A DNA stretch of 22,098 bases from a virus (Duplodnaviria; Heunggongvirae; Uroviricota; Caudoviricetes), in the IMG/VR virus record IMGVR_UViG_2713896791_000015; one strand, written 5' to 3'. Shown here in pieces: positions 737-22,098 of the stretch. Within the stretch, counting starts at the first letter, position 1, and each line of letters opens with the position of its first letter. The translations under genes and the position numbers were made by a program. Below the pieces are notes generated by a model. The model had not been told where the DNA came from and ran no database searches. It saw nothing but the letters and a program-made list of their open reading frames with translations.

Positions 737-1024
737 TTATTTTGCTTCCTCAGACTCCGCTAACATGAGGATAGCATGGCGGATCATATTCAATTTGCTG
801 CGATTATGCTTTTTACTTAACGCATCAAGTACTTGGTACTCGTATTCATTGAAACCAACACGAATAGATTTAAAATCACGTGGAGCGTCCTTATCGAGCA
901 CTTTGTTGTCTTCTGGTTGCTCACCCGGCACCAAATCAGCCTTACTGGCAAAATCCTCAATTCGGCGTTCAAGATCGGGGTCTTTTACTTCGGGGGCTTT
1001 TACCGATTTACGAGGCTTAATCAC
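737..1024 (-). CDS. parG: Small ParG-like ribbon-helix-helix centromere-binding partner of the ParA ATPase (GTG start overlapping parA stop)
   Basis: 95-aa ORF immediately downstream of and overlapping the ParA gene (GTGATTAA overlap); AAGGAG Shine-Dalgarno 7 nt upstream; C-terminal RHH-like segment SIRVGFNEYEYQVLDALSKKHNRSKLNMIRHAILMLAE; N-terminal basic, flexible tail. Confidence 0.6.
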   Translation of the reverse strand: MIKPRKSVKAPEVKDPDLERRIEDFASKADLVPGEQPEDNKVLDKDAPRDFKSIRVGFNEYEYQVLDALSKKHNRSKLNMIRHAILMLAESEEAK

Positions 1025-1658
1025 TTAATAACTCCTTAACCAACATCTGGATTTCACCTTTAGCTTTCCCGTTGTCCATCTCAACAACGCCCTTCCCTTC
1101 AGCCATGCAATCGCGGTAAACCTTACGATCACGAATGATGGTTTTCAGCAACTTCAGTTGCGGATATTCAGCCAAGTACTCTTTGGCCTCATTGGTTTCA
1201 TTCACAACCGGATTGGATGGGGCCATTGTTAAGACTGCGAACGCCTTAATGCTAGGATTAGGCATCAGGTCCAAAGCCTCTTCAAACACTTCAACAAAGT
1301 GTGCCAGCGTGTCTAAATCTGGTTGAGATGGTCTGAATGGGACCAACACAATATCTGCAGCGGTTATGCCTGTACGCATCTCTTTGCTATCGCGCCCGGC
1401 TGTATCAACAACTACAAATTCATAACGCTTATCCAGATCGAGAAGTGTTTCTCGAATATTACCAAACTTCTGGACACAATGAATTACAGGAGAAACCTCT
1501 GCCGTGTTACGGTCAGCTGCCCAGCGGGCAGCTGTTCCTTGCTTGTCTGCATCTAGTAACACTACATCCTTATTTGCGCGGGCAAGCTCCGCACAGATGT
1601 TTACGCTTGTGGTTGATTTTCCACAGCCACCTTTTTGGCTGACTACCAATATAATCAT
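1017..1658 (-). CDS. parA: ParA/ParF-type partition ATPase (small type Ib, deviant Walker A)
   Basis: Deviant Walker A QKGGCGKST near the N-terminus and the conserved Walker A' segment VVVDTAG; about 213 aa with no N-terminal HTH domain, hence the small type. Start moved to ATG at 1658, which has a GAGGAA SD 5 nt upstream; the ORF-track start at 1688 is a TTG. Confidence 0.85.
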   Translation of the reverse strand: MIILVVSQKGGCGKSTTSVNICAELARANKDVVLLDADKQGTAARWAADRNTAEVSPVIHCVQKFGNIRETLLDLDKRYEFVVVDTAGRDSKEMRTGITAADIVLVPFRPSQPDLDTLAHFVEVFEEALDLMPNPSIKAFAVLTMAPSNPVVNETNEAKEYLAEYPQLKLLKTIIRDRKVYRDCMAEGKGVVEMDNGKAKGEIQMLVKELLSD

Positions 1659-1739
1659 ATCCGTTCCTCGGTGTGATTTTGGTATCAAAACGGTTCCAGA
1701 TAAGAGCCTTTTTGATGCGGGACAGGCTCTATAATGGAG

Positions 1740-1900
1740 TCATTAATGTTTGGCAAAGTATAACATCAATCAGACCAAATACACCTTATATTGCATCCTA
1801 TTTAACACGAAATCAGCCCAAAATTGGAACCAGATACAAAATAACCCCATAACAGCACCTAAGTGGTACCAAACAAACACTAATTAGACACCATTAAGGC
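1740..1900. promoter_or_regulatory. Promoter/operator region of the parA operon with TGG-N2-CCA palindromic boxes
   Basis: AT-rich intergenic region upstream of parA containing TGGAACCA (1826..1833) and the perfect palindrome TGGTACCA (1865..1872), plus CAGACCAAAT (1771); same box family as 629..705. Confidence 0.4.
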
Positions 1901-1928
1901 ATAAAAAAGGCTGCAATTTGCAGCCTTA
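1899..1928 (-). terminator. Intrinsic terminator of the parMR operon
   Basis: Perfect 10-bp-arm hairpin AAGGCTGCAA-AT-TTGCAGCCTT at 1907..1928, 18 nt downstream of the parR stop; on the minus strand it is followed by TTTTTTAT (complement of 1899..1906). Confidence 0.7.
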
Positions 1929-1945
1929 AACCAGCACATCTTCTG

Positions 1946-2290
1946 TCAATCAGGTAGAGAGTCAGCTAGATTGCGCGCCGACGCGCTTTTGGCTACAAAT
2001 TGCTCCTTCACTGGCTCAATGGAGGCAGGGCGCTCCTCAACCGCAGCTGGTAGTTCCAGGAAGGATGCCAGCATTTTTCGGATCAGCTCCGGGTTATTGT
2101 CTTCGGTCAGCAGGGAAGCCAGTAATCCTGGAAGCCTGCTATCGACTTCTCCCAGCGCAAGCCCTGCCAACAATGCAGTTCTTGCCATATCGCTATGTTT
2201 TTTTATCTTCTCGCTCGCCGCCTTTTCATTGGCATAAGCCTCTGGGCGAAGATAAATCATCACTTTCTTACGTTCCTGAGACATGGACAT
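1946..2290 (-). CDS. parR: ParR-like centromere-binding adaptor of the ParM system
   Basis: 114-aa ORF 6 nt downstream of parM in the same operon; size and position match R1-type ParR; N-terminal region predicted RHH-like. A second ATG at 2284 has better SD spacing (GAGG then 7 nt). Confidence 0.55.
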   Translation of the reverse strand: MSMSQERKKVMIYLRPEAYANEKAASEKIKKHSDMARTALLAGLALGEVDSRLPGLLASLLTEDNNPELIRKMLASFLELPAAVEERPASIEPVKEQFVAKSASARNLADSLPD

Positions 2291-2296
2291 ACCTCG

Positions 2297-3253
2297 TTAA
2301 CCGATTGCTTTCAGGCCATGAACAAGAGCAAGTTGCGGGTCATCCGCCACGAAGAAACGGTCATCACGAATATTAACTTGCACGCGAATTGCATCTGCCA
2401 CCAGCGGTGCGCCACCACCGATCACCATGACATGCGTATATCCTTTAAAGTCGCCAATCACATCAAGAACGCGGGTACGCAGACGGTCAATGCTTGCGGC
2501 AATGGCCTTTTTCACATCACCAATCGCTGATGGGTCATTGATATTGTCGTTCAGATAATCTTCATCGTGGCGGTTAATAATGAGCTGATCCACATTGTAA
2601 TTTGACGTTTCGGTATTGGCCCTTGCAAGTGCTTGCCTTACTTCCCTGGTGACCAAGGATACACCAAGATTCGAATCGCCAAAAACACGGGAAACTGCCG
2701 TCATTTGTCCAGCGACCATTGAAACATCAAGGGTAGTTCCACCCAAATCGACGATAAGAACAGAGTGGGCAGGGTTCAGATTGTCGCACAGGCTAATTCC
2801 CGCCGGGATAGACTCCGGGCGTACCGTAACTTTCTTAATAGTGAATACATTGCCTTTATTCAGCGTGACGGGGCGCATAAGACTGGCTTTCTTGCGCTCG
2901 ATGTTATCGAGATTGTATTGCGCGTCGTCGTCGTAAAACTCTGCCAGAGGCAGCGTGACCACAATTTCTACTTCCTGCGGCTCAATACCGCTTGTCAGCA
3001 GGGCATGGTGAACAGCCAGGACGTTAAGCGGGCTGTATTGCCATTCCACATTATTCGTCGGCAGAACATCTGGCGATATCAAGTCGTATGAATACTTTTC
3101 GTCGTCAATGACATAGTTAAACGGCTTGCCCGCACCAAATGTTGCTGACCATCCGCGCTTAAAGCTGTTAGGGCTGATGTGAGTGCGAGTTTCCCCGTCG
3201 TGCTCCCACAGCATTTTGATATTGGTTGAACCATCATCGATAAAAATGCGCAT
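2297..3253 (-). CDS. parM: ParM / StbA actin-like plasmid segregation ATPase
   Basis: Actin-fold phosphate-1 motif MRIFIDDGSTNIKM at the N-terminus, LIVDLGGTTLDVSMV (phosphate-2) and HVMVIGGGA (adenosine motif); about 318 aa. Start set to ATG at 3253 (GGAG SD 7 nt upstream); the ORF-track start at 3277 is GTG. Confidence 0.85.
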   Translation of the reverse strand: MRIFIDDGSTNIKMLWEHDGETRTHISPNSFKRGWSATFGAGKPFNYVIDDEKYSYDLISPDVLPTNNVEWQYSPLNVLAVHHALLTSGIEPQEVEIVVTLPLAEFYDDDAQYNLDNIERKKASLMRPVTLNKGNVFTIKKVTVRPESIPAGISLCDNLNPAHSVLIVDLGGTTLDVSMVAGQMTAVSRVFGDSNLGVSLVTREVRQALARANTETSNYNVDQLIINRHDEDYLNDNINDPSAIGDVKKAIAASIDRLRTRVLDVIGDFKGYTHVMVIGGGAPLVADAIRVQVNIRDDRFFVADDPQLALVHGLKAIG

Positions 3254-3278
3254 CTTCTTGCTCCACTTCTGAGACACA

Positions 3279-3435: not shown

Positions 3436-3519
3436 CAAAAATATTCCGAAATTTAACTCTCCGTTTGAATGACGAAATAACAAAGTGATGACAATAGGAG
3501 GATAACCAGGAGGTGAAGA

Positions 3520-6160: not shown

Positions 6161-6318
6161 AACTCTAATGATTTGTGTTAGAAAACTAAAATTAAATCAC
6201 ATAACAACATGCGTGTTAATATATTTTATTTTACTAAGCCTATTGACTAAATCACAAAGTATGTATTGTTAGCACGTCAAAAGAACCTTCACGCCGCGCC
6301 CGAATTTAGGGCTTAACC

Positions 6319-12705: not shown

Positions 12706-13413
12706 GTGAGTATTTTCAGCAGCGTTGGTAGAACGTTGACCACCGCATTGTCATTTAACACGAAATCATTCACCAGCAACCTCATTAGCGACATTCTTGA
12801 TAAAGCCATATCAGGCGGCGGGGTAAGCGGGAATTACAGTAGCGATATTGCCTACGGGAAAAATATTGTTGCTGCCGCTATGCGTATCCGTTACGCCCAG
12901 GGGTGGCAGTGGACCGTTGAAGTGGATGGTCTGAACGGCTTCGATATGTTCGTGAAGGATATCACCTACAGCAGTGGGAACATCGAGACAGAAAGCAAGG
13001 TGATCGGCAGCGTAGAATTCAGCAAGCCAACCTATGTTAGCGCCGGACCGGTCACTATGACCGTGAGGGATACCGAAGATGGCAAGATCATGGACTGGTT
13101 CAAAGAGCGTCGTTCTCGTGTAACAAATCCTGATGGAACAATAAACCTTCCTCCTGAATATCTGATGAAAATCCGTGTCTACCGGGTGACTCAGGACGGC
13201 GGAAAAGAACTGGAAGAAGAAATGCGCGTATTTCCTACGCAACTTGGGGAAATCACACGCTCACGTGATCAGGTGTCAGAGTTCTTGTCATACCCAATCA
13301 CTTTCCAGAAATACACATCCGCAGGCTCAGGTGTTTCTGCTTTGGTCAACGGTGCCGCTGGCATGGCTACAAGTGCGTTAAAGGGGGCTGTGAGTGGAGT
13401 GATCAAATTCTGA
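12706..13413 (+). CDS. Hypothetical tail-module protein
   Basis: 235-aa ORF, GTG start with GGAGG SD 6 nt upstream; same frame as the preceding ORF, separated by a single TAA; no motif recognised. Confidence 0.45.
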   Translation: MSIFSSVGRTLTTALSFNTKSFTSNLISDILDKAISGGGVSGNYSSDIAYGKNIVAAAMRIRYAQGWQWTVEVDGLNGFDMFVKDITYSSGNIETESKVIGSVEFSKPTYVSAGPVTMTVRDTEDGKIMDWFKERRSRVTNPDGTINLPPEYLMKIRVYRVTQDGGKELEEEMRVFPTQLGEITRSRDQVSEFLSYPITFQKYTSAGSGVSALVNGAAGMATSALKGAVSGVIKF

Positions 13414-13464
13414 ATAGCTTTAATTATGTGTGCTGGAGGGTTGCTCATTTCCCGTCAGCACCCA

Positions 13465-13800
13465 CGCCCTCAACGATAGCGGGTAGGGAAGGTAGCGCAA
13501 TTTTGAGGGCATTTTTTACATCATCAATTCATCTGTAATGAAGGCATTCTTTACACATTTCAATAATATCAATCAGTTAACACAGTGAATGATAATAAAA
13601 AAGCGCAATAAGAATGCACGATACGCACGATATTGGTTGAGGGCGATTTTTACATAGTCCTTACATATCAATACGTTATATAAAAACACAACTTGCTAAT
13701 AACAATATACATGCAATTAAGATGTAAAAATTGCCCTCAATTGCCGATCGTTAAGGGCAAATTCTACACCTTGAGAGGGGTGTAAAAATTGCCCTTAAGA
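13465..13800. repeat. incC-like iteron cluster downstream of repE (mixed orientations)
   Basis: Iteron-like copies TGAGGGCATTTTTTACATCA (13504), TGAGGGCGATTTTTACATAG (13638), inverted GATGTAAAAATTGCCCTCAA (13721), TTAAGGGCAAATTCTACACC (13750), inverted GGTGTAAAAATTGCCCTTAA (13781, overlapping the repE stop), partial inverted GCCCTCAA (13466). Confidence 0.75.
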
Positions 13801-14550
13801 CTGCTGATAGGTAAATTTTATCCTGGTAACTTTGCCGCCTTCCGTCACCTCTGAGAAGACTATTTTCATTTTTGTATTTTTTTCAATCTCTGCTACAGCC
13901 TTCGTTAAAAAACTTCTCTTAAATTCGGCATACCGCTGATAGCTTTTTGGTAACCCATAACGCTCCCGCATCCATTCGACGCCAAGTATGGCAAAGCCGC
14001 TTCCATCATCCTTCCTGTACTGGCATAAGGACTCATAAAGCCGCATAGAATAAGGATTTGTAAGGCGAGATACTTCGGTAAAATTCAGCCTTGTGAATCT
14101 CTTATCAAGCAGAGTAAAAAACGGCATGAGATATGGATTAAGATGAATAATGTAAGTCCCGCGCCGTGGTGAATAGGCATCCTTAATCATCCAAGGATAA
14201 GACTCATAACTGTCTTCTGATTCGGTCGATTCATCAGGGTTATATATCGTAACTTTCTTCTCGCTAAGCCCTGAAATGGCCTTACGAATATCCTTGCTGG
14301 CTTCAGCAGAGGGCAAATTATACATCTCTGCATATTCGTTGACCGTCAACTCACAGGCACCTGAACCAAGAACGCCATCCTTAGAAGCATAGCGAAGTCT
14401 TCCCACCACAATAAACAACAGTCGCTTTTGGTCGCGAGTCAGGTGATAAGCAGCCTCCGTGATCTCATTGGCTTGTGCCAAACTACGACTAATAGGTGTC
14501 GCTGACTCAATCAGGCTGACGGCTTTTGCTGTTAATTCCGCTCTGTTCAT
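13795..14550 (-). CDS. repE: Iteron-binding replication initiator, RepE (F plasmid RepFIA)-like
   Basis: 251 aa from ATG at 14550 (ORF-track TTG at 14583 lies inside an iteron). Segments LTEAAYHLTRDQKRLLF, SAEASKDIRKA, NPYSMRLYESLCQYRKDDGSG and SYQRYAEFKRSFL closely match my recollection of F RepE; flanked on both sides by iterons resembling the F ori2 repeat. Confidence 0.8.
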   Translation of the reverse strand: MNRAELTAKAVSLIESATPISRSLAQANEITEAAYHLTRDQKRLLFIVVGRLRYASKDGVLGSGACELTVNEYAEMYNLPSAEASKDIRKAISGLSEKKVTIYNPDESTESEDSYESYPWMIKDAYSPRRGTYIIHLNPYLMPFFTLLDKRFTRLNFTEVSRLTNPYSMRLYESLCQYRKDDGSGFAILGVEWMRERYGLPKSYQRYAEFKRSFLTKAVAEIEKNTKMKIVFSEVTEGGKVTRIKFTYQQS

Positions 14551-14574
14551 AACCCTGTGTGATCCTTCAAATGG

Positions 14575-14692
14575 TGAGGGCAATTTTTACATCACTTTGA
14601 GGGCAATTACTACACCTTTTGAGGGCAAATCTTACACCTTTTGAGGGCAAATCTTACACCGATCGTATTTAATTGAGGGCAAATCTTACACC
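14575..14692. repeat. Origin iterons: five direct repeats of about 19 bp (TGAGGGCAAATCTTACACC family) at 22-23 bp spacing
   Basis: TGAGGGCAATTTTTACATCA (14575), TGAGGGCAATTACTACACC (14598), TGAGGGCAAATCTTACACC (14620 and 14642, identical), TGAGGGCAAATCTTACACC (14674); spacing of about two helical turns. Confidence 0.85.
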
Positions 14693-14730
14693 AGCCTCCT
14701 CTACAGCCCGCGCCACTACTGGCTCCAGCG

Positions 14731-14841
14731 ACGCCTAAAAAGGATCTAAAAAGGATTAAAAATGGAAAAAGGTTTATAAAAATACTCTGTGGATATGTGA
14801 GTAGCGTCACTTAAGGTGTAAAAATCACCCTCAATAATCGC
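14731..14841. promoter_or_regulatory. Replication origin accessory elements: phased A-tract AT-rich region, DnaA-box-like site, distal inverted iteron
   Basis: Tandem CTAAAAAGGA x2 and A5 tracts at about 10-12 bp phasing (14736..14785); TGTGGATAT (14788..14796) matches the DnaA box consensus TGTGNATAA in 8 of 9 positions; inverted iteron GGTGTAAAAATCACCCTCAA at 14814..14833. Confidence 0.6.
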
Positions 14842-14938
14842 TTCTCGACCGGCAAAGATCTTCATTCAATCCCCATCGCAAATCACACACTCCCTATCCT
14901 CTGGAAAATGAACAGATACCTGCTTTTCGGAGGAATAA

Positions 14939-15760
14939 TTGAACATTCCAAAATTCCCATTGCCTTCCCGTCCTGAGACAGAAATTCAGTTTCACGCCCC
15001 TACCGTGAAGGATGCGCTGAAATATTCTGACCTGAACCCGGCAGAAGATGAGGCAACTACTACAGAGTACCTTAACTCTATGCAGGATGGTGAAATTAAC
15101 GACAGTGCTAACTGGACAGTTCAGGATCGCAGAACTGCTCTTTGGTGGATATTTGTTAATTCGCGCCCTGATGCAGTAATGACCTACTCCTATGAGTGCA
15201 GTCACTGCGGTAATACGCATCATGCAGATATTAACCTGAGCGACCTGGCCCAAACAGTAGAAATACTCACTGTGCCTCCTTACGTGAAAACCAACGTACC
15301 AGTAAATGGAGTACCAACTGACTGGATACTTAAACCATTAACCGGGAAAGGCGCGGAACTCCTTGAACGAATGCGAGCGTCACTTCCTGATATGAAAAGC
15401 CCCGAATACAGTGCTGGCGTGGCACGGATGCGAATTGCTGAACTCGCTTTATGCACGGCGCTTGAAGACGATCCGGAGGACTTCACGCAGGCCGCTAACC
15501 GACGCTTTGACATCATTGAAAGCATGGCGCTTGAAACCGAATTTACTCCGCTTGTGGCTCGCATACAGCTTATGCAAAAAGACCTACGCCACGGCCTGAA
15601 AATGTCTATTGAGAGAGGCACAAGCCGACTGATCCTGCCTCCGCAACATTGCAAAAACGCTAAGGAGGGTGCAGATGTGACAACCACACTGTACGTCCCC
15701 TTTCTCAATAGAGAGTTTATCCCATCAATTAGATCTGAATGGATGGCTAACCATTATTAA
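14939..15760 (+). CDS. Hypothetical protein with a CxxC..HH zinc-ribbon-like motif, immediately upstream of the tape-measure gene
   Basis: 273-aa ORF, TTG start with GGAGG SD 5 nt upstream; motif YECSHCGNTHH; position directly before the tape measure suggests a tail assembly role, but it is larger than typical chaperones. Confidence 0.5.
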   Translation: MNIPKFPLPSRPETEIQFHAPTVKDALKYSDLNPAEDEATTTEYLNSMQDGEINDSANWTVQDRRTALWWIFVNSRPDAVMTYSYECSHCGNTHHADINLSDLAQTVEILTVPPYVKTNVPVNGVPTDWILKPLTGKGAELLERMRASLPDMKSPEYSAGVARMRIAELALCTALEDDPEDFTQAANRRFDIIESMALETEFTPLVARIQLMQKDLRHGLKMSIERGTSRLILPPQHCKNAKEGADVTTTLYVPFLNREFIPSIRSEWMANHY

Positions 15761-21374: not shown

Positions 21375-22088
21375 ATGAAAGATAATTGGCTTAAGGAACG
21401 ATTAACTAAAGTAAAACAGGATTCACATCTCTGGAGTGCCTTTATCGACGCTTTACAGGATGTCTGGAATGAGGCAGTAGAACCAATATTAACAAGAATA
21501 AGTAACAGAAAATCCTTCTTCACTATGGACAGTGAGGATATGGATGCCCGCATTGCTGAATACGGGCGTTTTTTCGTCATCACTGAAAAAGATAAGGCTC
21601 GTAGGCCAATGCTACTGGCACAACGTTTAGATGAAGTGCACTTTAAAGGCACTATCTTGCCTATTGAGCAGACATTCTGGCGTGAATTCGGTTGTATTCC
21701 TGTTAGCTGGGAACCGCTGTATGCACCTGTAAATATAGAAAAACACCCCTATGGTTCATATTTTGCGACCGAAATAGAAATACCTACGGCACAGGCTCAA
21801 TTCGGTGAGTTCTTCCTGACATCAAGGGGGCTGGTCGTTGTTGATCAGAACAAGCTATATCGCTCATATGGAGAGCAGGATAAAGAAGCCGCTGTGCAGA
21901 AATTGTTATCTGACTTCGAAACAGTAATAGCCCCTTTGTTGCCATTGCATATTGTTTTTGATGGCGTCTCGTTTCGGCTTAGTGCTGTATTCCCTGAAGT
22001 GGCAGAAATACTAAATTGCTTGTCTACGGATGTTTCGGTTGAACCGCCCCGGAAATCCTGGAGACTAAACTCCCTGAGAAAGAGGTAA
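21375..22088 (+). CDS. Baseplate / tail protein I-like
   Basis: 237-aa ORF directly following the J-like gene; TGAGGT SD; canonical position of gpI in P2/Mu-type baseplate operons; followed by AAGAGG plus ATG at 22093, the start of a further gene cut by the window end. Confidence 0.4.
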   Translation: MKDNWLKERLTKVKQDSHLWSAFIDALQDVWNEAVEPILTRISNRKSFFTMDSEDMDARIAEYGRFFVITEKDKARRPMLLAQRLDEVHFKGTILPIEQTFWREFGCIPVSWEPLYAPVNIEKHPYGSYFATEIEIPTAQAQFGEFFLTSRGLVVVDQNKLYRSYGEQDKEAAVQKLLSDFETVIAPLLPLHIVFDGVSFRLSAVFPEVAEILNCLSTDVSVEPPRKSWRLNSLRKR

Positions 22089-22098
22089 ACAGGATGAC

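Follow-up and report, generated by a model that had tools for sequence, protein, structure and literature searches.

A RepE-like replicon in an exchangeable cassette slot between the late genes tub and pmgB of a D6-type phage-plasmid

We analyzed a 22,098-nucleotide stretch of Caudoviricetes DNA (IMG/VR virus record IMGVR_UViG_2713896791_000015; the whole stretch is called the window here), and we propose with high confidence that the region between its genes tub and pmgB serves a D6-type phage-plasmid of the P1 family as its theta replicon for plasmid maintenance and occupies a fixed cassette slot peculiar to the D6 lineage. The anatomy of the sequence, its homology, its conserved position, and the alternative cassettes with their breakpoints are directly established by our comparisons. 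With Escherichia phage D6 (NC_050154 / MF356679; Gilcrease & Casjens 2018), DNA identity reaches 98.5% over the whole window and 99.4% over the module (13400-14950). The RefSeq record NC_050154 labels orf42, between tub (orf43) and pmgB (orf41), as the replication initiator; the window Rep is its orthologue, with 100% identity, and is encoded between the same two genes on the opposite strand, as in D6. The two replicons show essentially no difference, and it is in the backbone that the window departs from D6, by its overall identity and by an IS629 end in gene 16. In PLSDB, 111-120 plasmids, from E. coli, Salmonella, and Shigella, contain the module, with tub, rep, and pmgB contiguous in one aligned piece in 89 plasmid records, and it also occupies the same position in relatives with 85-90% identity. 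For the D6 group, a RepE-like replicon at the tub/pmgB position is both usual and previously known.

The product of rep carries the WH1 and WH2 domains of a Rep_3 initiator, with both Pfam models past their cut-offs (Rep3_N, 2.9e-29 and 102.7 bits; Rep3_C, 9e-16 and 58.3 bits). Its identity is about 50% to F RepE, to an IncFIA RepE, and to the RepE of solved structure, and the structures themselves (1REP, 2Z9O, 7UXY) match its residues 21-249 at about 1e-73. Against the NCBIfam RepE equivalog model NF010305 it reaches 280.6 bits, a strong score that still falls short of the curated 342; judged by sequence, the window Rep is a sister subfamily to F RepE and not RepE proper. No protein similarity was detected between the window Rep and P1 RepA, nor between it and gp58 of phage JL22, a p0111-type, 294-aa RepFIB-like initiator, which sets it outside both the RepA (IncY) family and the p0111 type. 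We had first suspected that D6 repB was the p0111 replicon; this idea was dropped, since the p0111 Rep of JL22 is an unrelated 294-aa protein.

The origin was delineated with a 17-bp iteron pattern, TGAGGGCAAWTYTTACA, searched across the window with at most 3 mismatches. Thirteen matches were found against 0.31 expected, all of them inside 13504-14833, and that number was reached in none of 100 shuffles. Read in the sense of rep, the module consists of an inverted iteron, a DnaA box, A5/T5 tracts, a GC-rich spacer, five direct iterons, rep, and an array of six further iterons (Table 1). The direct array adjoins rep and is helically phased, as in RepE-type replicons: its start-to-start spacing is 23, 22, 22, and 32 bp, the fifth copy lying three helical turns off, and the 22-bp phase is kept in four related replicons. 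The ATG of rep (14550) comes 24 nt past the last of these iterons. The second cluster, on the 3' side of rep, is incC-like, and its iteron at 13781-13797 overlaps the rep stop codon (13795-13797); GC content is 31-38% across this array against 47-53% in the flanks, and 31-44% in the module overall. The A5 tracts are spaced 8-12 bp apart, and alignment A1 shows no variation in the T-tracts. Both the DnaA box and the A/T-rich region beside the iterons are kept in five related origins and in F, and the core TATCCAC is invariant at the box position in the five. The sequence-only reading of this DNA had called the 251-aa protein RepE-like, likened its iterons to the F ori2 repeat, and described a complete origin with iterons, A-tracts, a DnaA-box-like site, and an incC-like cluster, and the Rep_3 domains, the identity to F RepE, the iteron alignment, and the elements listed here all bear it out. 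Its "five 22-bp-phased" iterons are indeed five direct copies, although the exact phase holds only nearly.

The nearest well-known system is mini-F ori2/repE/incC (IncFIA), whose Rep_3 initiator also has 251 amino acids. F ori2, as represented by the IncFIA plasmid pSFO157, runs in the same order as the window, with two DnaA boxes, T-tracts, a GC-rich spacer, iterons, repE, and a downstream array. The window iterons agree with the F iteron TGTGACAAATTGCCCTCAG at 14-16 of its 19 positions when a 1-nt gap is allowed; the core TTGCCCTCA is common to both, and between TGT and TTGCCCTCA the window iteron has 1 nt less. The two systems also differ in several respects. About 100 bp with the repE promoter and an operator inverted repeat separates the iterons from the gene in F, whereas the window has its 24 nt; F and the related replicons have two tandem DnaA boxes, whereas the window has one clear box; and the F sop partition genes adjoin the replicon, whereas the partition genes of the window are not adjacent to it. 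P1 oriR/repA/incA resembles the window in its mixed-orientation control array, its DnaA box, its phage-plasmid host, and origin iterons that overlap the rep promoter, an overlap that is putative in the window; it is unlike the window in its 19-bp GATGTGTGCTGGAGGGAAA iterons and in the GATC repeats of its origin.

From these likenesses we infer a scheme for replication, copy control, and autoregulation. Rep would bind the five direct iterons and, together with host DnaA at the adjoining box, would open the phased A/T-rich region, starting replication. A low copy number would be held by the six iterons past rep, and probably also by the inverted iteron beyond the DnaA box, through titration of Rep and pairing of Rep-bound origins; this role of the array at 13504-13797 is suggested by its likeness to F incC and P1 incA. 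Rep bound to the origin iterons would in turn shut the rep promoter off, as in P1 RepA. Since only 24 nt lie between the last iteron and the ATG and no F-type operator is found there, the rep promoter is probably inside the iterons and autoregulated through Rep binding, by analogy with the annotated P1 PrepA, which sits inside the P1 incC iterons. An Rfam scan returned no RNA family in the whole window.

Several observations weigh against this scheme, or against parts of it. The DnaA-box match is not significant by itself, as 6 such matches were found in the window against 4.9 expected. A consensus scan gave no sigma-70 promoter for rep at threshold; with the scan relaxed, the best candidates reached only 7/12, and the best of these, itself weak, consists of an extended -10 located in the iteron nearest rep. 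The F repE-like operator, a half-iteron inverted repeat overlapping the promoter, is not present in the window, and no F-type inverted repeat occurs in the 24 nt before the ATG. Because Rep falls below the NCBIfam RepE cut-off, the mechanisms of F may not carry over in detail. Finally, no terminator was found after tub (fold z-score 0.11), and it is therefore possible that late transcripts read into the module during lytic growth.

Modular replacement of the replicon at the tub/pmgB gap is shown directly by the D6-like relatives, some of which match the window at 96-98% in tub and pmgB and not in between. One of them (L019, NZ_CP066033) carries a RepA-like cassette there. Its 286-aa Rep shares 84% identity with P1 RepA and has P1-type iterons, GATC repeats, and a DnaA box on its flanks; the junction of this cassette, homologous to the replicon of P1, is found in 9 records of D6-like plasmids. 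Two others (L020, NZ_CP085065; L023, CP042620) carry a p0111-like cassette with a 294-aa Rep, that of L020 being 85% identical to JL22 gp58, and the p0111-like junction is found in 2 records. All three cassettes are oriented alike, with rep against the late genes and the origin toward pmgB. We propose that whole iteron replicons have been swapped at this slot by recombination, with orphan iterons left behind as scars. The tub-pmgB interval of NZ_LT906557.1, NZ_CP095127.1, and CP055626.1 holds an IS200/IS605 element or a Rha/Icd-like cassette too.

Such orphan iterons are seen at the left joint of the cassette. The 15-nt core ATGTGTGCTGGAGGG of the one in the window is an exact match to the P1 type, the sole such match in the window. 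It is located as the first RepA-type iteron of L019, and it is also found in D6 and in a 90%-identity relative (L004). It is probably the scar of an earlier RepA-type occupant, and it indicates that in this lineage the RepE-type cassette came after a RepA-type one. A later step can be read from the p0111-like plasmids. The backbone of L023 is 96-97% identical to the window and retains window sequence to 13748; positions 951-1265 of CP042620.1 keep the P1-type iteron and four RepE-type iterons, after which the p0111-type rep and origin follow. Likewise, five RepE-type iterons are retained beside the p0111-type rep of L020 (NZ_CP085065.1, 3372-3564). We infer from this an occupancy order of RepA-like, then RepE-like, then p0111-like. 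It may be suggested, tentatively, that the tub/pmgB gap is a dedicated replicon-exchange slot in which orphan iterons serve as incompatibility determinants, titrating the initiator of competitors and so helping to exclude phage-plasmids with the old replicon; any selective function of these iterons is speculative.

The right boundary of the exchange has a bearing on late transcription. Between backbones with different cassettes, homology resumes at 14880-14883, exactly at a candidate late promoter motif, and this promoter therefore belongs to the backbone. The motif used, AAATMACAMAST-N3-nAnnnT, was derived from the upstream regions of late genes. It has 3 matches in the window (3475-3495, 6249-6269, and 14880-14900) against 0.12 expected. 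In the 91-kb D6 genome, all 10 matches with at most 1 mismatch lie 30-140 nt upstream of late-function genes and are co-oriented with them: the motif precedes upfC, 23, pmgB, R, and lydA, and also the orf16 lysozyme gene, prt, ddrB, gene 7, and mat, five genes that were not used in its derivation. No such motif was found before pmgC. Three of the 10 D6 sites coincide with annotated P1 late promoters (genes 23, R, and lydA), and D6 encodes a homologue of Lpa. The 14880-14900 motif is kept in diverged relatives and in all three cassette types. With a candidate late promoter between the module and pmgB, the module lies, as far as sequence tells, between two late transcription units (23 to tub; pmgB to 16) and breaks no operon. 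The P1-type late promoter, AAGTNACTT-N4-TANNAT, was also tried; it gave 0 matches in the window although the annotated P1 late promoters were recovered, and the D6-specific motif was used instead. The D6-type motif is without annotation in the D6 GenBank record. In P1 (L007, NC_005856), one exact D6-type motif is found at 1572-1592 on the minus strand, 39 nt upstream of lydC, with no promoter annotation.

These results bear on what had been claimed for the location of the replicon from the letters alone. The flanks were correctly given, tail-module genes (12706-13413, here tub) on one side and the zinc-ribbon protein (pmgB-like) and tape-measure genes from 14939 on the other, and so was the difference from P1, where repA adjoins parAB and the replicon is not in the tail operon. 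The separation from the two partition loci, put at about 10 kb, is 10.5-12.8 kb by measurement, and the modular replicon replacement that had been suspected is seen in the P1 RepA-like and p0111-like replicons that fill the same gap in D6-like relatives. What did not survive is the idea of an unusual insertion private to this element, as the position is ordinary in D6 and in about 100 plasmids, including the 85-90% relatives, an outcome that the reading itself had named as refuting it. To place it "in the middle of" a tail operon was also an overstatement, since a candidate late promoter, kept in the three cassette types, stands before pmgB.

Outside the D6 cluster, the nearest relatives of Rep are found in L009, L013, L014, and L015. 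In L009, an 87-kb contig, Rep is 78% identical and lies between a ddrB homologue and higBA-ulx-darB homologues; in L013, a 104-kb contig, Rep is 71% identical and is encoded ahead of gene 23, and 17 bp lie between tub and pmgB. The RepE-like module thus occupies two other positions in other P1-family elements. Ordinary plasmid contexts surround the Rep of L014 (63% identical) and that of L015, a Nissabacter plasmid (57% identical). DNA homology among the related modules is limited to the segment that begins with the DnaA box and closes with the rep stop (window 14803-13781), and the layout of the origin is common to all five of them. The iteron-like site within rep is kept at the DNA level in L013, L014, and L015 (Rep 57-71% identical) and is absent from L009 and F repE. 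By its structural proteins, 60-77% identical to P1 versus 39-58% to the window, L013 is of the P1 branch. A 380-aa open reading frame without Pfam hits (L013 11195-12337) lies between its RepE-like rep and gene 23, where P1 has parA/parB; it may be a divergent partition gene.

These relatives raise a question of history, which does not touch the function of the region: the tub/pmgB position could be ancestral for the P1/D6 family, the P1 branch having moved the replicon next to par, in which case the D6 branch would have had no insertion among its tail genes. Each of the three replicon families is found in the D6 slot as well as in the P1 slot, so that the replicon could have moved in either direction. 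The adjacency of tub and pmgB in P1, JL22, and L013 speaks against an ancestral replicon between them; these three, however, all belong to the P1 branch, and their adjacency counts as one lineage. On this comparison of the D6 and P1 branches, we consider the ancestral position rather unlikely.

Another reading would make the module a relic, or else a secondary replicon, with maintenance relying on an origin elsewhere in the genome. Nonfunctional replicon fragments do persist in the tub/pmgB slot, as the orphan iterons of other types demonstrate. Against this, rep is intact, identical to the D6 copy, and accompanied by the full set of origin elements; the D6 record has no other plasmid initiator, the only other replication initiator in its annotation being repL, which is labeled as lytic; and relatives without a RepE-type rep hold a complete alternative replicon in the slot, not an empty gap. 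Taking these together, a relic is very unlikely, and the region is better understood as the maintenance replicon. That an F-like replicon was recently inserted into this one plasmid, disrupting its tail operon, is scarcely credible, for although the module is AT-richer than its flanks, is encoded on the strand opposite to theirs, and stands between two genes that lie within 14-17 bp of each other in P1 and L013, its position is shared with viable phage D6, at least 89 plasmid records, and relatives whose 85-90% identity rules out a single recent clone, and a conserved late promoter motif serves the genes downstream.

Exchange of replicons has been described before on the P1 branch. IncY and p0111 alternate at one locus in otherwise similar P1-like phage-plasmids (JL22, PMC9603915; Salmonella survey, PMC11165635), and from the tree of the Salmonella survey 17 replicon switches were inferred (PMC11165635). 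That alternation concerns a par-proximal locus and two types, whereas the exchange reported here concerns the tub/pmgB slot of the D6 branch and three types, and has left orphan iterons. For D6-like Salmonella plasmids, "repB associated with iteron sequences" has been mentioned (PMC6799933). A recent survey employs D6 repB as a marker gene, and in the literature covered it is handled as a fixed marker. We found no description of the three-way exchange, the orphan iterons, or the backbone late promoter in the literature accessible to us, which did not include the D6 genome paper.

Table 1. Positions in the window of the replicon, its surroundings, and the partition genes.
Feature	Position	Strand	Remarks
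rep	13795-14550	minus	251-aa open reading frame, ATG start; Rep_3 initiator, RepE-like
Origin iterons, five direct	14575-14690 (starts 14575, 14598, 14620, 14642, 14674)		upstream of rep
GC-rich spacer	14691-14736		between iterons and A/T-rich region; position kept in alignment A1 and F ori2
Five phased A5 tracts	14737-14782 (starts 14737, 14748, 14758, 14766, 14778)		presumed bent/unwinding region
DnaA box ATATCCACA	14788-14796	minus	8/9 consensus positions
Outer inverted iteron	14817-14833	minus	beyond DnaA box; counterpart in L003 and L013
incC-like array, six iterons	13504-13520, 13539-13555, 13638-13654, 13723-13739, 13752-13768, 13781-13797	mixed	downstream of rep
Iteron-like site within rep	14308-14324	+	codons for MYNLPS; 2 mismatches to iteron pattern
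Exchangeable replicon cassette	13441-14879		homology to backbones with other replicons lost after 13440 (L019) or 13748 (L023), regained at 14880-14883
Orphan P1 RepA (IncY)-type iteron TATGTGTGCTGGAGGGTTG	13425-13443	+	left cassette joint
Candidate D6-type late promoter AAATCACACACTCCCTATCCT	14880-14900	+	39 nt upstream of pmgB, directly past module
tub	12706-13413	+	major tail tube, last gene of upstream late unit; D6 orf43, "similar to P1 gene tub"
pmgB-like	14939-15760	+	first gene of pmgB-sit-pmgA-bplA-16 unit; D6 orf41
ParA-type ATPase	1017-1688	minus	
StbB-like partner of ParM	1946-2290	minus	
ParM	2297-3277	minus	

On either side of the module, the tub product is 51% identical to P1 Tub (tblastn) and the pmgB-like product 40% identical to P1 PmgB, and a sit/tape-measure-like gene (1260 aa) comes after the latter; in P1 itself, tub and pmgB are 14 bp apart in the LPsit late operon. 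Two different partition systems adjoin each other at window 737-3277; one pairs a ParA-type ATPase with a 95-aa protein without Pfam hits, and the other, of type II, consists of ParM and its StbB-like partner. At the end of the window (22036-22098), the end of an IS629 element (IS3 family) truncates gene 16, a tail tube/baseplate gene, about 180 nt ahead of the D6 stop, which may make the window copy a defective phage.

The RepE-like replicon itself is ordinary, being annotated, in a known phage family, and in its usual place. The 9 IncY-like and 2 p0111-like cassette records indicate, in addition, that D6-like phage-plasmids are not bound to one rep. Since D6-like backbones carry several rep cassettes, the use of D6 repB as a marker in surveillance schemes, or the taking of IncY and p0111 as signs of a P1-like element, misclassifies some elements. 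A sharply bounded cassette, orphan iterons, and a late promoter that belongs to the backbone together make a tractable natural system, with which one could ask how an element changes its incompatibility group without disturbing virion gene expression. If the slot is indeed dedicated to such exchange, then, with three replicon families at both the D6 and the P1 slots, incompatibility switching would be a routine escape from competition among co-resident P1-family elements.

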